From: Escherichia coli
GTDB lineage: Bacteria; Pseudomonadota; Gammaproteobacteria; Enterobacterales; Enterobacteriaceae
DNA length: 64,000 nucleotides
Strand: one strand, 5' to 3'
NCBI RefSeq assembly: GCF_013315695.1
Contig: NZ_CP054353.1
Below are positions 25,907 to 32,686 of this stretch, piece after piece. The notes under the pieces are model-generated. The model had not been told where the DNA came from, did not search any database, and saw only the letters and a list, made by a program, of their open reading frames with translations. The translations under genes were made by a program, and so were the position numbers. Within the stretch, counting starts at the first letter, position 1. Every line of letters begins with the position of its first letter.

Positions 25907-28686
25907 TTTCCACTGGTCAGGCTACCCCGCAGCAGGTCTGCTTTGCGGCGGGCGCGTTCAGTGGTTTCACTGATTCTCTGTGCGTGCTCTGCGTCACGGA
26001 TGGCGTGCAGCATGTCAGAAAGCACGGTAACAGGGGTTTTCATGGTGTTCTGGTCCTGCTGAAGTGTGGATGCCAGGCGTGCGGCGGCTTCGGGGTCTGA
26101 TGCCCCCAGCTGTTCCAGATAGCTGGCGACCGGGTTATGGCGGATCTCCGTGCTGCTTACGCCGTGATTACGGCTCAGGCGCTGCCAGAGCTGCGTGATT
26201 CGGCTGTCCGGGCGGGTATCCGGTTTGCGTACAATTTCAAATCCCTGCGGTGCAATGATGCTGCCGTCAACGTACAGACTGCCGCCCCGTAACAGGTGCT
26301 GCATCTGCTGTTCACCAATATGCAGGCCGAGAGATTCAGCAGACTCCCGCCATTCTTTTGCGAGTAACTCGTGGTTATCAGGCAAAGGCTGTGGCTGTTT
26401 GCGGCTCTGTGTCCAGCTCTGCATTTCATAACTGCTGTTTTTGGCCTGTTTGTCACGCAGCGAACGCATCAGCGCCCGGCGTTCGTGCCGTTTCAGTGAG
26501 CGCATCCATTCATTCACTTCAATTTCAATGCCGTCAGGAAGCTGCGGCCACTGTGCTGGCCGTTCTTCCGGCTGTTCTGTCCCGTTGTTGTCCGTTTCCT
26601 GTACACGGGGACAGTTATTGCCACGAGTCCAAGGGGCGGCAGGGCCGCCCTGAAGGTCAAAACCATTTTCGCGGGCGCTGTCTTCCGCTTCCGGTTTGCG
26701 TCTTACCAGCTTCCAGTTATCCGGATGCGTGCATACGCGGGAAGACTCCCCAATGAGCGGCGACCAGATCCCGTAAATCTGTACGCTCTGTTCACCGTAA
26801 TCGTTCAGCTCATCTGCGAGGTCGTAGGCGGTGCGAATCAGGTAGTCTTTGCGTGGAACAAGTACGCCACCCTGTTTCTCAATGTAGGTGGCAAAACATC
26901 CGGCATCAGCGGCAGCGAGTACCGCGTCCATTGCGTCATCCTTCAGCCGTTGCGGGCCTTCCGGGTTGCGTGCCATCTGGCTGGCAAGGCGGCGCAGTTC
27001 ACGCCACACCTGACGGGAGGGGATACCAAAGAACTGGAACTGGCGGACCCGGTGAAGGCGCGCCCAGCCGATGGCGCGTTCCACGCTCTCGGCCATTGAT
27101 TTTCCGGTTTCGTGGTCAACGCGTGGCTTGCCCGTTTTCGGGTCGATGCCATCCACGGCGCGGCTGTCCAGGTTCTTTCCGATGTAGGTGGCGATGTAGC
27201 TGGTTGGTGTGCCTTTTGAGCCGTCTACGTACTCCGCCTTAAAACGCGGAGTTATGTCATCGCCCAGCTCGTGGCGGTCTTCCTGAATGGCAATATCGCA
27301 GACGTGGGACACGATGGTTTCAATCTCGTCCTGATGTGCAAAGACCATCATATGCCAGTGCACAGTGCCGTCATGGTGAGGCTCCACCGTGCGGATGCCA
27401 TACCAGCGCAGACCGTCGCGGTTCAGTTTTTTGCGGACCGCCGCAAAAAACGTGTTAACCAGGTAATCGCTGGAGTCGCGCATGGTGGCCCCGTTCCATT
27501 TGGGATTCGGATGACCGTTCTCCGTTGTTGCGTGGTATTTTGACGGGCAGGTGACAGTCAGAAACACCGCTCTGTCGCCACGGGCTTCGGCCAGAAGTTC
27601 CAGTCCCTTCATGGTGGCCATCATTTCTGCCTTACGGTGAACCGGGTTACTTACTCCCGCGTAATACACTGTCTCGAGATCAATCGTGAACCCGTCTTCG
27701 TTTTCCAGCATGAAACTTTTCAGGAAATCGCGTGTTTTCTCGCGCTGTGCGCGAAACTCGCTTAACGCGTCCTGGCTCAGATAGGGTGATGTTTTTCTGG
27801 AAACCAGACAGGCGGCGCGGAGTTGTTCTTCTCTCCACTCGCAACGTAACAGCCACAGTTTGCGTTTCCACCATTCCGCACAGGTCAGGCGAAGGATTGC
27901 GCCCGGCAGCAGCTCCGTGTCCGGTTCGTTCCTCCGGTCTTTGTCTGTTGTCAGTGCGTCATAATGTGGAGGCATGGCGTGCAGGTGTAACGCCATGCGG
28001 GCCAGCATCTGATACGCCTTCAGCGTTACATCCATGGTCAGTTCGCCATCAGTCGCACCAAAGCCATCGCAGAGTTTTTCGAAGGTGCTGCTGAACATCG
28101 CCGCCGTCATGGTGGCCAGCGTCTGTATCTGGTGTTTGTTGAGCTGCGGCAGGTAAAGCAAATCGTCCAGGCGTTCGCGTCCGGCAAGGGAGCGATAACC
28201 CGGTGTCAGCCAGCGGTGATCGGTGCGGTCCAGGCGTTCGAATATTTTGCGCAGGGTTCCGCGCGCGTAGCGTTCAGCCTGCCAGCTCTTTTTGCCTTTC
28301 TGGCGATCGGCTTCCTGTTTTTTGCGCAGGAAAGAGAGGTGGCGGCTCAGAGGTTCACGCAGATAAACGGGAAGCACCTTCAGTGTGGCAAAAGCACGGG
28401 CCACCGGGTCTTGTTCTGTTGCCTGACGCTTGCTGATGATGCTTTGTGCCAGCTTTTCACGCTGTCCGGCTTCCTCAAGGGATGCCATGAGTTTTTTACC
28501 CACGGTGGATTGTGCGAAAAAGGCTTCCTCCTTCGCTTCCTGTTCTTCCAGAGCCTTTTTGTCTGCCTCAAGGTAGTAACGGATGGCGCGTTGTAGGTCG
28601 GTTTCAGTTTCCTGCCTGTGCTCCGTAAATCTGGCCGGATCAATGGCTGGCCGTGGTTCATTCCAGCTCCATGCAAACTCACTCAT
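25840..28686 (-). CDS. gpA: Replication initiation endonuclease (P2 gpA family, HUH/Tyr rolling-circle nuclease) with long C-terminal extension
   Basis: ORF track 25840..28713. Start set to ATG 28686 (MSEFAWSW), overlapping the upstream stop (ATGA). HUH-like TVHWHMMVF and Tyr motif PTSYIATYIGKN. 948 aa. Confidence 0.85.
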   Translation of the reverse strand: MSEFAWSWNEPRPAIDPARFTEHRQETETDLQRAIRYYLEADKKALEEQEAKEEAFFAQSTVGKKLMASLEEAGQREKLAQSIISKRQATEQDPVARAFATLKVLPVYLREPLSRHLSFLRKKQEADRQKGKKSWQAERYARGTLRKIFERLDRTDHRWLTPGYRSLAGRERLDDLLYLPQLNKHQIQTLATMTAAMFSSTFEKLCDGFGATDGELTMDVTLKAYQMLARMALHLHAMPPHYDALTTDKDRRNEPDTELLPGAILRLTCAEWWKRKLWLLRCEWREEQLRAACLVSRKTSPYLSQDALSEFRAQREKTRDFLKSFMLENEDGFTIDLETVYYAGVSNPVHRKAEMMATMKGLELLAEARGDRAVFLTVTCPSKYHATTENGHPNPKWNGATMRDSSDYLVNTFFAAVRKKLNRDGLRWYGIRTVEPHHDGTVHWHMMVFAHQDEIETIVSHVCDIAIQEDRHELGDDITPRFKAEYVDGSKGTPTSYIATYIGKNLDSRAVDGIDPKTGKPRVDHETGKSMAESVERAIGWARLHRVRQFQFFGIPSRQVWRELRRLASQMARNPEGPQRLKDDAMDAVLAAADAGCFATYIEKQGGVLVPRKDYLIRTAYDLADELNDYGEQSVQIYGIWSPLIGESSRVCTHPDNWKLVRRKPEAEDSARENGFDLQGGPAAPWTRGNNCPRVQETDNNGTEQPEERPAQWPQLPDGIEIEVNEWMRSLKRHERRALMRSLRDKQAKNSSYEMQSWTQSRKQPQPLPDNHELLAKEWRESAESLGLHIGEQQMQHLLRGGSLYVDGSIIAPQGFEIVRKPDTRPDSRITQLWQRLSRNHGVSSTEIRHNPVASYLEQLGASDPEAAARLASTLQQDQNTMKTPVTVLSDMLHAIRDAEHAQRISETTERARRKADLLRGSLTSGNKKQTETGFTNPVNEQKTCRDI

Positions 28687-29072
28687 GGCTGGTATCCCGT
28701 CACGCGCTGCCACTCCTGCGAGAAGAGGGCAGAAAGGCGGTTAAATTCAGCGGTGTATTCACTCAGCGAGGCACACCCGCCAGCAGTGCGATGCGCCAGC
28801 ATTGCCGCAAATACGGAGGCCGGGGAGTCGTAATACGCCAGCAGTGATTCTCCGTGTGGTGTCAGGCAATGCAACGCCAGCCCGTGTGGTGTGAAGTCCA
28901 CGCGGTAGCAGTCGTCTACTGTGAAATAAAGGGTGTCTGCATTTTCCGGTTTTGTGGTGCGTGCTCTGTTGTCACGACCACGGATGTAGAGATCAAATAA
29001 TCCCTGAAGAACGGGAGCCAGACGGGTGTCCTGTGTGCGCACCCATCTTGTGAAGTCATGAGCGTCAATCAT
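28683..29072 (-). CDS. Hypothetical early protein (129 aa), translationally coupled to gpA
   Basis: ORF track. ATGA overlap with the gpA start. Confidence 0.6.
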   Translation of the reverse strand: MIDAHDFTRWVRTQDTRLAPVLQGLFDLYIRGRDNRARTTKPENADTLYFTVDDCYRVDFTPHGLALHCLTPHGESLLAYYDSPASVFAAMLAHRTAGGCASLSEYTAEFNRLSALFSQEWQRVTGYQP

Positions 29073-29144
29073 GCTGCAATTCTCTTTACTACAGATGTGC
29101 GAAGGCCTCCCGCCGCAAGGTGCAGGAAAGGCCCGGAACAGGAA

Positions 29145-29375
29145 TTAATGGAGTTTGTTTTGCTGCTGGAAGAGTTGTTGCAGCTCGCGCAGATCATCCG
29201 CCAGATAGCTGAAAACAGAGGCGGAATAGATGTTCGATAGCGCGTGGCTGCGCTCATGCAGCATATTGATGTGCATGATTTGCGCGACGCGTGATGCGCG
29301 GAAAAGTCTACGGTTGATTTCAGTCTGGATGTGACGACGCGCAGCGTATGCGCGCTGTTGTTTGCGGTTTGCCAT
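29145..29375 (-). CDS. Hypothetical early protein (76 aa); its SD is the proposed antisense-RNA target
   Basis: ORF track. AAGAGG lies 7 nt upstream of ATG 29375. Confidence 0.6.
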   Translation of the reverse strand: MANRKQQRAYAARRHIQTEINRRLFRASRVAQIMHINMLHERSHALSNIYSASVFSYLADDLRELQQLFQQQNKLH

Positions 29376-29382
29376 GGTGTGG

Positions 29383-29429
29383 CCTCTTTGCTCGGTGATA
29401 GAAATAGCTCACCATCCAGAGTTGAGAAT
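29383..29429 (-). promoter_or_regulatory. Downstream antisense target pair a2/b2 (b2 covers the orf76 Shine-Dalgarno)
   Basis: On the minus-strand RNA, AUUCUCAAC (29429..29421) and GAGCAAAGAGG (29393..29383) are complementary to GUUGAGAA and UCUUUGCUC of the structured RNA. Confidence 0.55.
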
Positions 29430-29437
29430 CTCGGGGT

Positions 29438-29513
29438 GGCGAGACGTACAGGGTTCTCAACACCGGAGAGCAAAGAATCCGGCCCGACCGAAGTCGGCCC
29501 CGTACGTCCCGCC
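29438..29513 (-). ncRNA. Candidate C4/CI-type antisense regulatory RNA (76-nt three-way junction)
   Basis: The minus-strand RNA is GGCGGGACGUACGGGGCCGACUUCGGUCGGGCCGGAUUCUUUGCUCUCCGGUGUUGAGAACCCUGUACGUCUCGCC. It has a 16-bp closing stem with two G-U pairs (C-A on the other strand), a UUCG tetraloop hairpin, and a CCGGA/UCCGG hairpin displaying CUUUGCUC. The boundaries given are the stem ends, not mapped RNA ends. Confidence 0.55.
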
Positions 29514-29554
29514 ATAATTCTGACGCGAAAAAGACGTGGCAATACAGTACGCAC

Positions 29555-29574
29555 AAAAAAACCGCTGGCGCGGT
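29555..29574 (-). terminator. Intrinsic terminator inside the early operon leader
   Basis: The minus strand reads ACCGC-GCCA-GCGGU followed by U7. Confidence 0.6.
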
Positions 29575-29580
29575 TATGCG

Positions 29581-29605
29581 CTTTGCTCTGTATCGGGTTG
29601 AGAAT
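29581..29605 (-). promoter_or_regulatory. Upstream antisense target pair a1/b1
   Basis: On the minus-strand RNA, AUUCUCAAC (29605..29597) and AGAGCAAAG (29589..29581) are separated by 7 nt and sit immediately 5' of the terminator. Confidence 0.5.
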
Positions 29606-29697
29606 CCCGGCACCCGTTTTATGAGGTGCAGCGGAAATGTAACCTGACCGATTGCGGCATGGCAAGCGGTTTTTTTGTGTGTGCATGTTCTGGTTTC

Positions 29698-32319: not shown

Positions 32320-32373
32320 GGTGTACTTATAAGTACACCTTGTGCGCAAGCTTAGTGTACTTATAGGAACACT
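32320..32373. promoter_or_regulatory. Immunity operators: perfect 20-bp palindrome plus an imperfect second copy
   Basis: GGTGTACTTATAAGTACACC at 32320..32339 is perfect. AGTGTACTTATAGGAACACT at 32354..32373 matches 8/10 per half. Centres are 34 bp apart, between the divergent cox-like and repressor genes. Confidence 0.6.
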
Positions 32374-32377
32374 GTCA

Positions 32378-32686
32378 ATGCTTATCGGTGAAAAAATTAG
32401 AGTGATTCGTGAATCAGAGGATTTAACGCGCGAAGAATTTTGCGGCCTGATTGATGTGCCTATCGGCACTTTGCGTCGTTATGAAACGGGGCGGATTGAA
32501 AACATAGGGGGCGAAGTGCTTATCAAGATTGTTAATCACCCTCGCTTTTTTAAGTACATGAATTGGCTTATGACGGGAAAAACAAATGAGGCTGCTGGGC
32601 AGATCAGTCCGTCTCTCTCCCCTGATGGGCCAAAAAGCACATCGCCTTCTCAAAAACCCCGCAAGACTGGCACACAGCCCGGCTAA
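32378..32686 (+). CDS. Immunity repressor, HTH XRE/Cro-C1 type (P2 C-equivalent)
   Basis: ORF track 32342..32686. Start set to ATG 32378 (MLIGEKIRVIRESEDLTREEFCGLIDVPIGTLRRYETG). Confidence 0.75.
   Translation: MLIGEKIRVIRESEDLTREEFCGLIDVPIGTLRRYETGRIENIGGEVLIKIVNHPRFFKYMNWLMTGKTNEAAGQISPSLSPDGPKSTSPSQKPRKTGTQPG

Follow-up and report, generated by a model that had tools for sequence, protein, structure and literature searches.

A C4/CI-family antisense RNA with a putative decoy leader and paired target sites ahead of the epsilon-type gene orf76 in a P2-type phage element of Escherichia coli

Results

The window, a stretch of 64,000 nucleotides of Escherichia coli DNA, contains a P2-type phage element with the genes orf76, orf129 and gpA on the minus strand (Table 1). 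The gap at 29376..29697 holds a previously unannotated antisense RNA of the C4/CI family together with a leader of the decoy type and target sites. The C4/CI-type system is already well known, its family is curated and widespread, and the RNA described here is a further member. A first-pass annotation of this gap had proposed a C4/CI-type RNA with the layout a1-b1 / b'-a' / a2-b2 (ribosome-binding site). Rfam matches, the tandems found in P4, N15 and Gifsy-1, and compensatory changes among relatives all agree with that proposal. It had overlooked that the a1-b1-terminator segment belongs to the curated isrK family, that a promoter-like site lies upstream of this segment, and that orf76 is of the epsilon type.

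Table 1. Features of the cassette and of the downstream genes (window positions)
Feature	Position	Strand	Basis or remarks
Promoter-like site	29636..29665	-	-35 TTGCCA (29665..29660), 18-nt spacer, -10 TACATT (29641..29636); consensus scan
IsrK-family leader/short RNA	29555..29629	-	Hairpin 1, hairpin 2 (a1 in loop), single-stranded b1, intrinsic terminator
a1, upstream target of a' (AUUCUCAAC)	29597..29605	-	Sequence; covaries with a', both sides changed in 4/8 pairs
b1, upstream target of b' (AGAGCAAAG)	29581..29589	-	Sequence; b1-b' 100% paired, both sides changed in 6/9 pairs
Intrinsic terminator AACCGC-GCCA-GCGGUU + U7	29553..29575 (stem 29575..29560)	-	Terminator scan; 6/6 pairs invariant in relatives
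C4-family antisense RNA gene	29432..29519	-	RF01695 match, fold z = -5.3, covariation
b' recognition loop (UUCUUUGCUCU)	29467..29477	-	Fold; covariation with b1 and b2
a' recognition segment (GUUGAGAA), unpaired in three-way junction	29454..29461	-	Fold; covariation with a1 and a2
a2, downstream target of a'	29421..29429	-	Sequence; covaries with a'
b2, downstream target of b', includes orf76 Shine-Dalgarno GAGG	29383..29393	-	Helix 95% paired, both sides changed in 5/11 pairs
orf76, P4 epsilon (derepression/antirepressor) homologue	29145..29375	-	PF25738 31.5 bits, cut-off 27
orf129 and gpA replication endonuclease gene	25840..29072	-	Downstream, same operon; ORF list, Pfam Phage_GPA 430 bits
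orf129	29072..28683	-	ORF list
gpA	28713 or 28686..25840	-	ORF list; Pfam Phage_GPA

A scan with the Rfam C4 model (RF01695), which had been suggested along with the proposal, gave a minus-strand match of 79.1 bits against a gathering score of 45. The match is full length (model positions 1-87 of 87; E = 7.7e-14 for the whole 64-kb window). Fold prediction for 29513..29438 reproduced exactly the 76-nt three-way junction drawn in the first-pass annotation. It has a 16-bp closing stem with two G-U pairs, to which the Rfam P1 stem adds one extra U-A pair, and a second arm formed by the hairpin CCGAC-UUCG-GUCGG with its UUCG tetraloop. The loop of the third-arm hairpin displays UUCUUUGCUC(U), and the unpaired GUUGAGAA comes next. 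The elements of the RF01695 architecture are thus all present, with a long P1 closing stem, a tetraloop-capped P2, a P3 that displays b', and an unpaired a' that lies between P3 and P1. The fold energy is -46 kcal/mol, none of 200 shuffled sequences was as stable, and the minimum-free-energy structure is identical with the centroid structure. The fold is specific for the minus strand, as had been deduced from the two G-U pairs: the plus strand folds worse by 10 kcal/mol and is mismatched at those positions. Pairing in the C4 stems is 100% among relatives, where 4 pairs are compensatory and the G-U pairs are conserved. The hairpin originally given as CCGGA/UCCGG does exist in the window, but only 5 bp of it (GCCGG/CCGGU) are conserved in relatives, the sixth A-U pair being peculiar to the window variant.

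The c4, CI and CA RNAs are freed in their mature form from a longer transcript by RNase P, in P4 also by PNPase. The C4 RNA of the window has RNase P-compatible features, namely a stem of the acceptor type, a UUAU leader conserved at the 5' end and an invariant CCACCC tail at the 3' end, and the scaffold bearing these flanks does not vary among relatives. The mature RNA is predicted to span about 29513..29438 and to end with a 3' ACC(C) tail. A second promoter-like site at 29542..29514 was not taken as a promoter; transcription from it would begin within the 5' stem of C4, and the UUAU leader conserved in the C4 family makes up its -10.

The segment upstream of the C4 RNA matched the Rfam isrK model (RF01394) over its whole length (positions 1-77 of 77) with 62.8 bits against a cut-off of 50 (E = 4.6e-11, whole 64-kb window). 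The helices of this leader are 98.7-100% paired in 38 distinct relatives. The Rfam c4-a1b1 model (RF03163) gave 15.9 bits on the window, under its cut-off of 46.7, and the same segment reaches isrK instead; in Gifsy-1 both models match one element. The cassette identifies IsrK as the leader that carries a1/b1 in a C4 module. The predicted transcription start, at about 29629, coincides with the first base of the isrK match, and the -10 and its spacing occupy conserved positions when compared with the sequence ahead of P4 seqA and the isrK promoter region of Gifsy-1. Homology among variants starts about 10 nt upstream of the -35, regardless of the left-hand context. The intrinsic terminator that had been noticed between the upstream targets and the RNA was found independently by the terminator scan. 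In the full-length fold an extended helix forms around the terminator in this variant only. A LexA box (CTGT-N8-ACAG with at most one mismatch) was not found near the cassette, and the count of such sites in the window was that expected by chance. An SOS input was rejected because LexA-type sites are absent nearby, and the search for an input signal to the cassette found none.

A 205-aa ORF (29686..29069) extends through the whole cassette and over orf76. RefSeq and the Sakai annotation list it as a CDS, and elsewhere it is called 'ash family protein' or 'antirepressor protein'. It is extremely unlikely that this protein is the functional product. Most variants keep this frame open, as do 45/45 over orf76, and it ends with an ATGA overlap with the start of orf129; however, its codons show 63 synonymous and 526 non-synonymous differences, whereas those of the orf76 frame show 342 and 250, respectively, which places orf76 under purifying selection. 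Its weak similarity to Pfam Phage_ASH (PF10554; 19.3 bits) is under the cut-off of 26, and the ORF passes through the invariant intrinsic terminator. Indels in the RNA loops break the ORF in 5 of 46 distinct variants (L018, L037, L052, L055 and L056), and RNA complementarity is complete in all of these except L052, which has a 2-nt deletion in a1. The covariation in this region is also of the RNA type. The first-pass annotation had dismissed the ORF, and the codon differences in its frame justify the dismissal. Correct annotation would remove one false protein and add two RNA genes.

The sites a1, b1, a2 and b2 lie on the minus strand where the first-pass annotation had put them. It had also suggested a comparison of relatives, and this comparison revealed compensatory changes in the stems and in both target pairs. 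In 45 related cassettes the RNA scaffold is near invariant while a1/a'/a2 and b1/b'/b2 vary in concert. For a'-a2/b'-b2, 93.8% of the pairs are formed in 38 distinct sequences, compared with 40-52% in slid controls. The covariation score is 0.583, compared with 0.125 in shuffles (reached by 0/500), and both sides have changed in 9/19 pairs. The a1-a'/b1-b' pairs are formed in 96.1% of cases, with a covariation score of 0.673 vs. 0.121 and both sides changed in 10/17 pairs. For both target sets the pairing of 94-96% stands against 28-58% in slid controls, and the intramolecular helices are 99.8% paired in relatives. The relatives comprise 14 combinations of 6 a-types with 11 b-types; cognate a/b pairing reaches 17.6/19 and non-cognate pairing 12.9/19. 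Paired a and b sites that could serve as further C4 targets are absent elsewhere in the window, including the vicinity of the orf129 and gpA starts. A conserved hairpin between a2 and b2 was considered and dropped, as the predicted stems are weak, at -0.8 to -4.2 kcal/mol, and differ from one variant to the next.

Covariation and homology suggest that C4 may act in trans as an immunity factor, on translation or on transcription of the downstream operon. The same complementarity could be read as alternative folds of one long mRNA that hide or expose the orf76 Shine-Dalgarno sequence with no trans-acting RNA at all. In the full-length and precursor folds b'/a' do pair with a2/b2 in cis, nearly isoenergetic with the native C4 fold, and structures A and B of Gifsy-1 have been reported as alternative folds of a single transcript. 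The tRNA-like scaffold, flanked by the conserved UUAU (5') and CCACCC (3'), is however invariant, and a separate terminated leader RNA would be superfluous for a cis-only switch. The founding members P1 c4, P4 CI and N15 CA are processed trans-acting RNAs, and STnc1160 is a stable species in Salmonella. We therefore regard an exclusively cis-acting leader as very unlikely. Fold prediction makes the unprocessed precursor bistable, with -65.6 kcal/mol when it pairs in cis and hides the Shine-Dalgarno sequence and -64.5 kcal/mol in the native C4 fold, so that part of the control of orf76 could still be exerted purely in cis.

The orf76 product is homologous to P4 epsilon (BLASTP E = 4e-9; 33% identity), which is itself a full-length member of Pfam PF25738. 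The GAGG inside b2 is 7 nt ahead of the orf76 AUG (29375). Since b2 overlaps the Shine-Dalgarno sequence of orf76, the data support orf76, one of the genes named in the first-pass annotation, as the gene directly controlled, and this support is limited to orf76. The first-pass annotation had further suggested an RNA-based immunity or replication-control layer. Because orf76 is an epsilon-type antirepressor homologue, this layer is better described as derepression/induction control, of the kind seen in P1 c4-ant and P4 CI-epsilon, than as replication control alone.

It is possible, if somewhat unlikely, that the main output is premature transcription termination of the P4 type rather than a translation block. 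C4 would then act on a1/b1 and a2/b2 of nascent transcripts, transcription would stop before orf129 and gpA, and the RNA would chiefly be a replication-immunity factor, which was the emphasis of the first-pass annotation. In P4 the homologous region, seqA-CI-seqC, comes before epsilon and the replication gene alpha, and P4 CI acts by termination (summarized in PMC4825925). In the window b1 is 5 nt upstream of the invariant intrinsic terminator, the orf76 mRNA is C-rich and G-poor (rut-like C/G of 1.5-1.8), and orf129 and gpA overlap, so that both depend on upstream transcription. On the other hand, the overlap of b2 with the Shine-Dalgarno sequence is a signature of translational control, the stretch from b2 to gpA is free of terminators save a possible Rho site, and a/b-type sites are absent near the orf129 and gpA starts. 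In addition, gpA is still needed from the early promoter in lytic growth. Such termination would be compatible with a block of orf76 translation, which we prefer. The gpA gene is 430 nt beyond orf76, and its control and that of orf129 would require either Rho-type polarity or P4-type termination, for which precedent exists. An effect of C4 on these two genes is plausible only through polarity. No Pfam or NCBIfam family was found for orf129, and its proposal as the counterpart of P4 orf151 was rejected because similarity is absent.

Discussion

The gap upstream of orf76 very probably contains a self-contained C4/CI-family cassette for RNA-based immunity and derepression, in which C4 would silence orf76 and the leader would compete for C4. 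We propose that a constitutive promoter at about 29665..29636 would fire with transcription beginning near 29629, and that the majority of transcripts would end at the intrinsic terminator to give an IsrK-type RNA of about 75 nt with a1 in a hairpin loop and b1 exposed. Read-through transcripts would carry the tRNA-like three-way-junction RNA, which RNase P may excise by analogy with P1 c4 and P4 CI. In the mRNA leader, b2 would be bound by the b' loop of C4 and a2 by its unpaired a' segment. With the orf76 Shine-Dalgarno sequence inside b2, this pairing would block orf76 translation in the quiescent prophage. The short leader RNA, with the same two addresses, would compete for C4 as a decoy or activator, and orf76 production would be decided by the balance of leader RNA and C4. 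The supplement of PMC2864571 cites a model of a1/b1 competition. Untranslated, C-rich orf76 mRNA might in turn undergo Rho-dependent termination and lower the expression of orf129 and gpA.

When released, the orf76 product may inactivate the phage's own repressor. The P4 E (epsilon) protein binds the P2 C repressor (PMC2995052). The epsilon-like proteins of the window, Sp13 and P88 are 89-95% identical while their immunity repressors are only 29-37% identical, so specificity for the phage's own repressor appears doubtful.

Of 5426 complete E. coli genomes, 1174 (~21%) have the cassette, O157:H7 among them; it is also present in Sakai prophage Sp13, at NC_002695.2 2598553..2598863, and in each of the 80 viral contigs encoding a relative of orf76. 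It is unannotated or mis-annotated as an 'ash' or 'antirepressor' protein. A scan of genome contigs for orf76 by exact peptides yielded only 3 species representatives because this method reaches close relatives only. Literature searches did not find a prior description of this RNA in P2-like, Xuanwuvirus or CP-933T phages. To account for the unexpected induction of the P2-like prophage Sp13 by mitomycin, Asadulghani et al. proposed an epsilon-like gene. The cassette offers a concrete candidate regulator for that gene. The 14 natural a/b combinations on a near-invariant scaffold also provide a ready-made series of compensatory mutants for studying the orthogonality of antisense immunity.

More tentatively, and with the odds clearly against it, one ancestral cassette (P_LE, IsrK/seqA decoy, C4/CI RNA and epsilon) might be common to P2 phages of the P88/Sp13 type and to the P4-type satellites that are parasites of P2-type phages. 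Recombination would have shuffled its two short RNA addresses, with no fewer than 6 a-types and 11 b-types, into orthogonal 'barcodes' that choose, in a polylysogen, whose epsilon is released, and the leader-to-C4 ratio would be an induction trigger with no need of a LexA site. If true, the 'barcode' reading of a shared cassette would explain both the mitomycin inducibility of Sp13 and the origin of helper derepression by P4.

The cassette joins four literatures that are usually separate, those on P1 c4, P4 CI, N15 CA and Gifsy-1 IsrK/STnc1160. The tandem of isrK followed by C4 occurs also in P4, N15, Gifsy-1 and P88, with the position of the promoter conserved among them, and the order promoter-isrK-C4 is absent from the P2 early region. 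A close parallel is P4 (P_LE - seqA - CI RNA with seqB - seqC - epsilon - orf151 - cnr - alpha), which has the same families in the same order, isrK corresponding to seqA and C4 to CI RNA. As in P4, the promoter is positionally conserved, two complementary target sets flank the RNA, and an epsilon-family gene is followed by the element's replication gene; the epsilon-type orf76 lies between the RNA and gpA, the arrangement of P4 immunity-derepression. Unlike P4, the element in the window is a helper-class phage with its own C repressor, the replication gene is gpA instead of alpha, orf129 is unrelated to orf151, and the two epsilon proteins share only a third of their residues. The window b2 is directly on the Shine-Dalgarno sequence of the epsilon homologue, whereas in P4 the C4/CI match ends (8420) about 240 nt before epsilon starts (8175), and the small kil/eta ORFs lie in between.

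The immI region of P1/P7 (c4 - icd - ant) encodes the same RNA family, RF01695 having been built around P1 c4. It has the same a1-b1 / b'-a' / a2-b2 layout, its b2 covers a ribosome-binding site and an antirepressor is under control, and in both systems specificity comes from a few covarying bases, the basis of P1/P7 heteroimmunity. The window differs in that it lacks an icd leader gene, its epsilon-type antirepressor is unrelated to Ant, and its upstream target comes as a terminated IsrK-type RNA; with the c4-a1b1 model it scores only the 15.9 bits noted above.

In N15 immA (CA RNA - antA/icd/antB) the isrK and C4 tandem is present and a' is identical to that of the window, but b' is different, the downstream genes are icd and a Bro-N-type antirepressor, and the prophage is a linear plasmid. 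The N15 antirepressor operon is under the control of a small processed RNA (Ravin et al. 1999, as cited in PMC4488713).

Gifsy-1 (IsrK - STnc1160/'orf45' - AnrP) has isrK and C4 in tandem, both above the cut-offs, upstream of an antirepressor gene, with their own promoter and a leaky terminator, and its leader RNA turns on downstream translation in trans. When supplied in trans, Gifsy-1 IsrK increased translation of the antirepressor by a factor of more than 100, and IsrK was required for prophage induction (PMC4825925). Unlike the element in the window, Gifsy-1 is lambdoid, and AnrP is from another antirepressor family. Its authors describe a translated ORF of 45 codons that starts from a conserved AUGG at the C4 5' end and is coupled to anrP, whereas the counterpart of this frame in the window runs for 148 codons across orf76 without protein-level constraint. 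That the C4 region of Gifsy-1 is, in that phage, the translated orf45 is its authors' reading, and it is compatible with the present data.

Rfam assignment and folding of the RNA elements

When the whole 64-kb window was scanned against Rfam at gathering thresholds, exactly two matches were returned, both within the gap upstream of orf76. The first-pass annotation had proposed a C4-type antisense RNA here, and the match to RF01695 bears this out. The isrK match corresponds to the segment with the upstream targets a1 and b1 and the terminator; a1 lies in the loop of the second isrK hairpin, and b1 is single-stranded directly before the terminator. The older Rfam model c4-a1b1 matched weakly (15.9 bits, short of 46.7). 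Reading the minus strand from 29800 to 29000 located every named element at the coordinates given for it, and the terminator said to separate the upstream targets from the RNA was recovered by a terminator scan.

Features of the cassette region in the window
Feature	Position	Strand	Details
205-aa ORF	29686..29069	-	runs across the RNA cassette and orf76
Sigma-70-like site	29665..29636	-	TTGCCA-18-TACATT; scan; predicted start ~29629
isrK (RF01394)	29629..29555	-	62.8 bits, cut-off 50, full model
a1	29605..29597	-
b1	29589..29581	-
Intrinsic terminator	29575..29560 (stem)	-	stem plus U7; terminator scan
Second promoter-like site	29514..29542	-	TTGCCA-17-AATTAT; between terminator and C4
C4 antisense RNA (RF01695)	29519..29432	-	79.1 bits, cut-off 45, full model
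a2	29429..29421	-
b2	29393..29383	-
orf76	29375..29145	-	Pfam PF25738 'Derepression protein'

The segment 29513..29438 folds into the claimed three-way junction with an energy of -46 kcal/mol, and its centroid and minimum-free-energy structures are the same. Its stability has a z of -5.3, and none of 200 shuffled sequences was equally stable. The fold is strand specific as proposed: the complementary strand is 10 kcal/mol worse, with mismatches where the two G-U pairs sit. The second promoter-like site has as its -10 the UUAU leader conserved in the family, and transcription from it would begin within the C4 5' stem; it is probably not a promoter. No LexA site was found for the cassette.

Covariation of recognition segments and targets

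Relatives of orf76 were taken from 80 viral contigs. The upstream region was kept in all 80 (81-99.7% identity), giving 46 distinct cassette variants. Six short recognition blocks vary as sets on a near-invariant scaffold of promoter, leader hairpins, terminator, C4 stems, UUCG hairpin and 3' CCACCC tail. Covariation was scored on 45 aligned sequences (38 distinct rows) against 500 shuffles and slid controls.

Pairing and covariation in the cassette variants
Helices	Cells paired	Score	Shuffled mean	Shuffles reaching score	Slid controls
b'-b2 and a'-a2	93.8%	0.583	0.125	0/500	40-52%
a1-a' and b1-b'	96.1%	0.673	0.121	0/500	28-58%
Intramolecular	99.8%	0.099	0.076	0/500	34-49%

Pairing in the b1-b' helix is complete (100%), and 6 of its 9 pairs have changed on both sides. 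Within the intramolecular helices, four pairs are compensatory and several G-U pairs are conserved, fixing the strand. Fourteen combinations of 6 a-types and 11 b-types are seen, and the two kinds of block reassort independently of each other. The RNA forms 17.6 of 19 pairs with cognate target sets vs. 12.9 with non-cognate sets. The comparison of loops with both target pairs, and of the stem for compensation, gave the outcome named beforehand as supportive. Unless RNA-RNA pairing is functional at both target sets, this result is hard to account for.

Several variants deserve mention. A 17-nt insertion in L018 (132..406 of IMGVR_UViG_2582580934_000004) leaves its C4 RNA with a pair of b' hairpin segments in tandem: first UUCUUUGCUCU, as in the window, then one of the UUCUUGUGUAG type. 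The b1 and b2 of this variant fit the latter alone, and the variant resembles a recombinant of two specificity types. The C4-family RNA of N15 (L086, 2584..2671) has the same a' as the window RNA (GUUGAGAA) and a different b', an instance of partial address sharing between unrelated prophage types. In the C4 copy of the O157 Sakai prophage Sp13 (L091, ~6800), CCAGCCC replaces the 3' CCACCC tail invariant in 45/45 aligned variants; this is where the RNA would be expected to imitate the 3' end of a tRNA for RNase P. Both edges of the cassette are mosaic. At the left joint (~29675), three unrelated contexts meet it ~10 nt upstream of the -35; at the right joint (29072..29067), homology to P88 and Sp13 ends at the orf129 ATG, where both carry an unrelated 121-aa gene.

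The 205-aa ORF and the Ash family

The first-pass annotation had seen no credible coding potential in the gap. Among 45 variants, codon differences were 342 synonymous vs. 250 non-synonymous in the orf76 frame, and 63 vs. 526 in the frame overlapping orf76. RNA-loop indels break the long frame in 5 of the 46 distinct variants (L018, L037, L052, L055 and L056); full RNA complementarity is kept in four of these, and L052 has a 2-nt deletion in a1. The ORF scored 19.3 bits against Pfam Phage_ASH (PF10554; cut-off 26) over residues 16-111 (nt 29641..29354). On the codon differences, broken frame and sub-cut-off score, the ORF is not a conserved protein. The alternative frame 29375..29069 (-) is open across all of orf76 in 45/45 variants without amino-acid constraint, and its end overlaps the orf129 start codon in an ATGA. 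The open frame may be fortuitous, or it may serve for ribosome transit or coupling, as with Gifsy-1 orf45 or P4 kil/eta.

PF10554 also matches the old P4 'cI protein' ORF overlying the CI RNA (59.7 bits; L085, 8584..8168, -) and N15 gp32 (28 bits; L086, 2600..2890). The 'Ash protein family' appears to be a conceptual translation of the isrK-C4 RNA module. A survey of P4-like satellites took PF10554 as 'epsilon' marker (PMC8628076); P4 epsilon's own family is PF25738. RefSeq lists no RNA gene at the cassette, and in some genomes the read-through ORF is an 'ash family protein' or 'antirepressor protein' (Sakai ECs_2630).

The controlled gene and a proposed mechanism

P4 epsilon is a full-length PF25738 member (170 bits), and orf76 is 33% identical to it over 51 residues (E = 4e-9). 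The antirepressor P4 E (epsilon) binds C, the repressor of P2 (PMC2995052). As had been suggested, orf76 would be the direct target of the RNA, since b2 includes its Shine-Dalgarno (SD) sequence. The gpA gene (Phage_GPA, 430 bits) follows orf129 and overlaps it. The orf76 mRNA is C-rich and G-poor (C/G 1.5-1.8), which makes Rho-dependent polarity onto orf129 and gpA plausible.

The following course of events is the most likely. The cassette promoter would give a mostly terminated leader RNA, and read-through past the terminator would give a C4 precursor. Processed C4 would pair with a2 and b2 and block orf76 translation, and leader RNA carrying a1 and b1 would compete for C4. Loop-target pairing is computed at -14.3 and -12.5 kcal/mol for b' and at -9.9 and -9.5 kcal/mol for a'. 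Before processing, the precursor is predicted to be bistable (SD-hiding cis-paired form, -65.6 kcal/mol, vs. native C4 fold, -64.5 kcal/mol); the cis-paired form dominates the unconstrained ensemble, in which b2 bases are ~80-90% paired. It is reminiscent of 'structure A', the silent form described for Gifsy-1.

Between the window, Sp13 and P88, the epsilon-like proteins are 89-95% identical, whereas the immunity repressors share only 29-37% identity (window 32342..32686 (+) vs. L001 682..963 and L091 3316..3720). As the antirepressor homologue and the repressor do not change in step, the phage's own repressor is only a possible target of orf76.

Distribution and significance

The host element is a P88-like (Xuanwuvirus) P2-type prophage with integrase, C-type repressor, cox-like gene and a minus-strand early operon. 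The cassette occurs in 1174 of 5426 complete E. coli genomes. A 93% identical orf76 relative with the C4 5' motif upstream was found in L093 (NZ_JBQPOM010000071.1, 'Vagococcus sp. WN89Y'), a contig labelled as Firmicute; the likely cause is contamination by, or mis-binning of, enterobacterial DNA.

The literature searched gave no account of the window's RNA in P2-type phages. Asadulghani et al. reported a P4 epsilon-like gene in P2-like Sp13, which was unexpectedly mitomycin-inducible though no peptidase motif is present in its repressor; they did not settle the mechanism (PMC2669165). The Sp13 cassette is ~98.5% identical to the window's and of the same a/b type. Our results allow a very common E. 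coli prophage element to be annotated correctly, connect it in a testable way with the unexplained induction of Sp13-type prophages, and provide cassette variants as a natural compensatory series.

Comparison with known systems

By Rfam, the same isrK-then-C4 tandem is present in P4 (where isrK falls on the seqA region, C4 on the CI RNA, and epsilon comes directly after), in N15 (at its small processed RNA, upstream of the Bro-type antirepressor operon), in Gifsy-1 (IsrK, then C4 at STnc1160/'orf45', upstream of AnrP), in P88 and in a P4-like island. The -10 element and spacing are positionally conserved among these and the window. In the P2 early region, Rfam finds neither RNA. In many lambdoid phages, Stx phages among them, more distant copies (68-74% identity) precede antirepressor or Rha genes, and one deposited record already annotates 'isrK' beside 'C4 antisense RNA'. 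The E. coli EH53 P4-like island (L004, 2509..3175) has one isrK and two C4 copies interleaved with 'Icd-like' ORFs, several of them marked as pseudogenes and overlapping the RNA genes.

Weinberg et al. described 593 C4 sequences in proteobacterial prophages and restated the Citron-Schuster idea that a1/b1 and a2/b2 compete for c4 (PMC2864571 and supplement). In Gifsy-1, IsrK in trans raises downstream antirepressor translation >100-fold, and induction requires the IsrK promoter (PMC4825925). The first-pass observation is confirmed and its interpretation supported, including the likeness to P1/P7 c4 and P4 CI, which the C4 match and the P4 tandem uphold. Given the shared tandem and the published C4 and IsrK work, the window RNA is a genuine representative of a kind already well described; the cassette is no new kind of system and adds one more example to those of P4, N15 and Gifsy-1.
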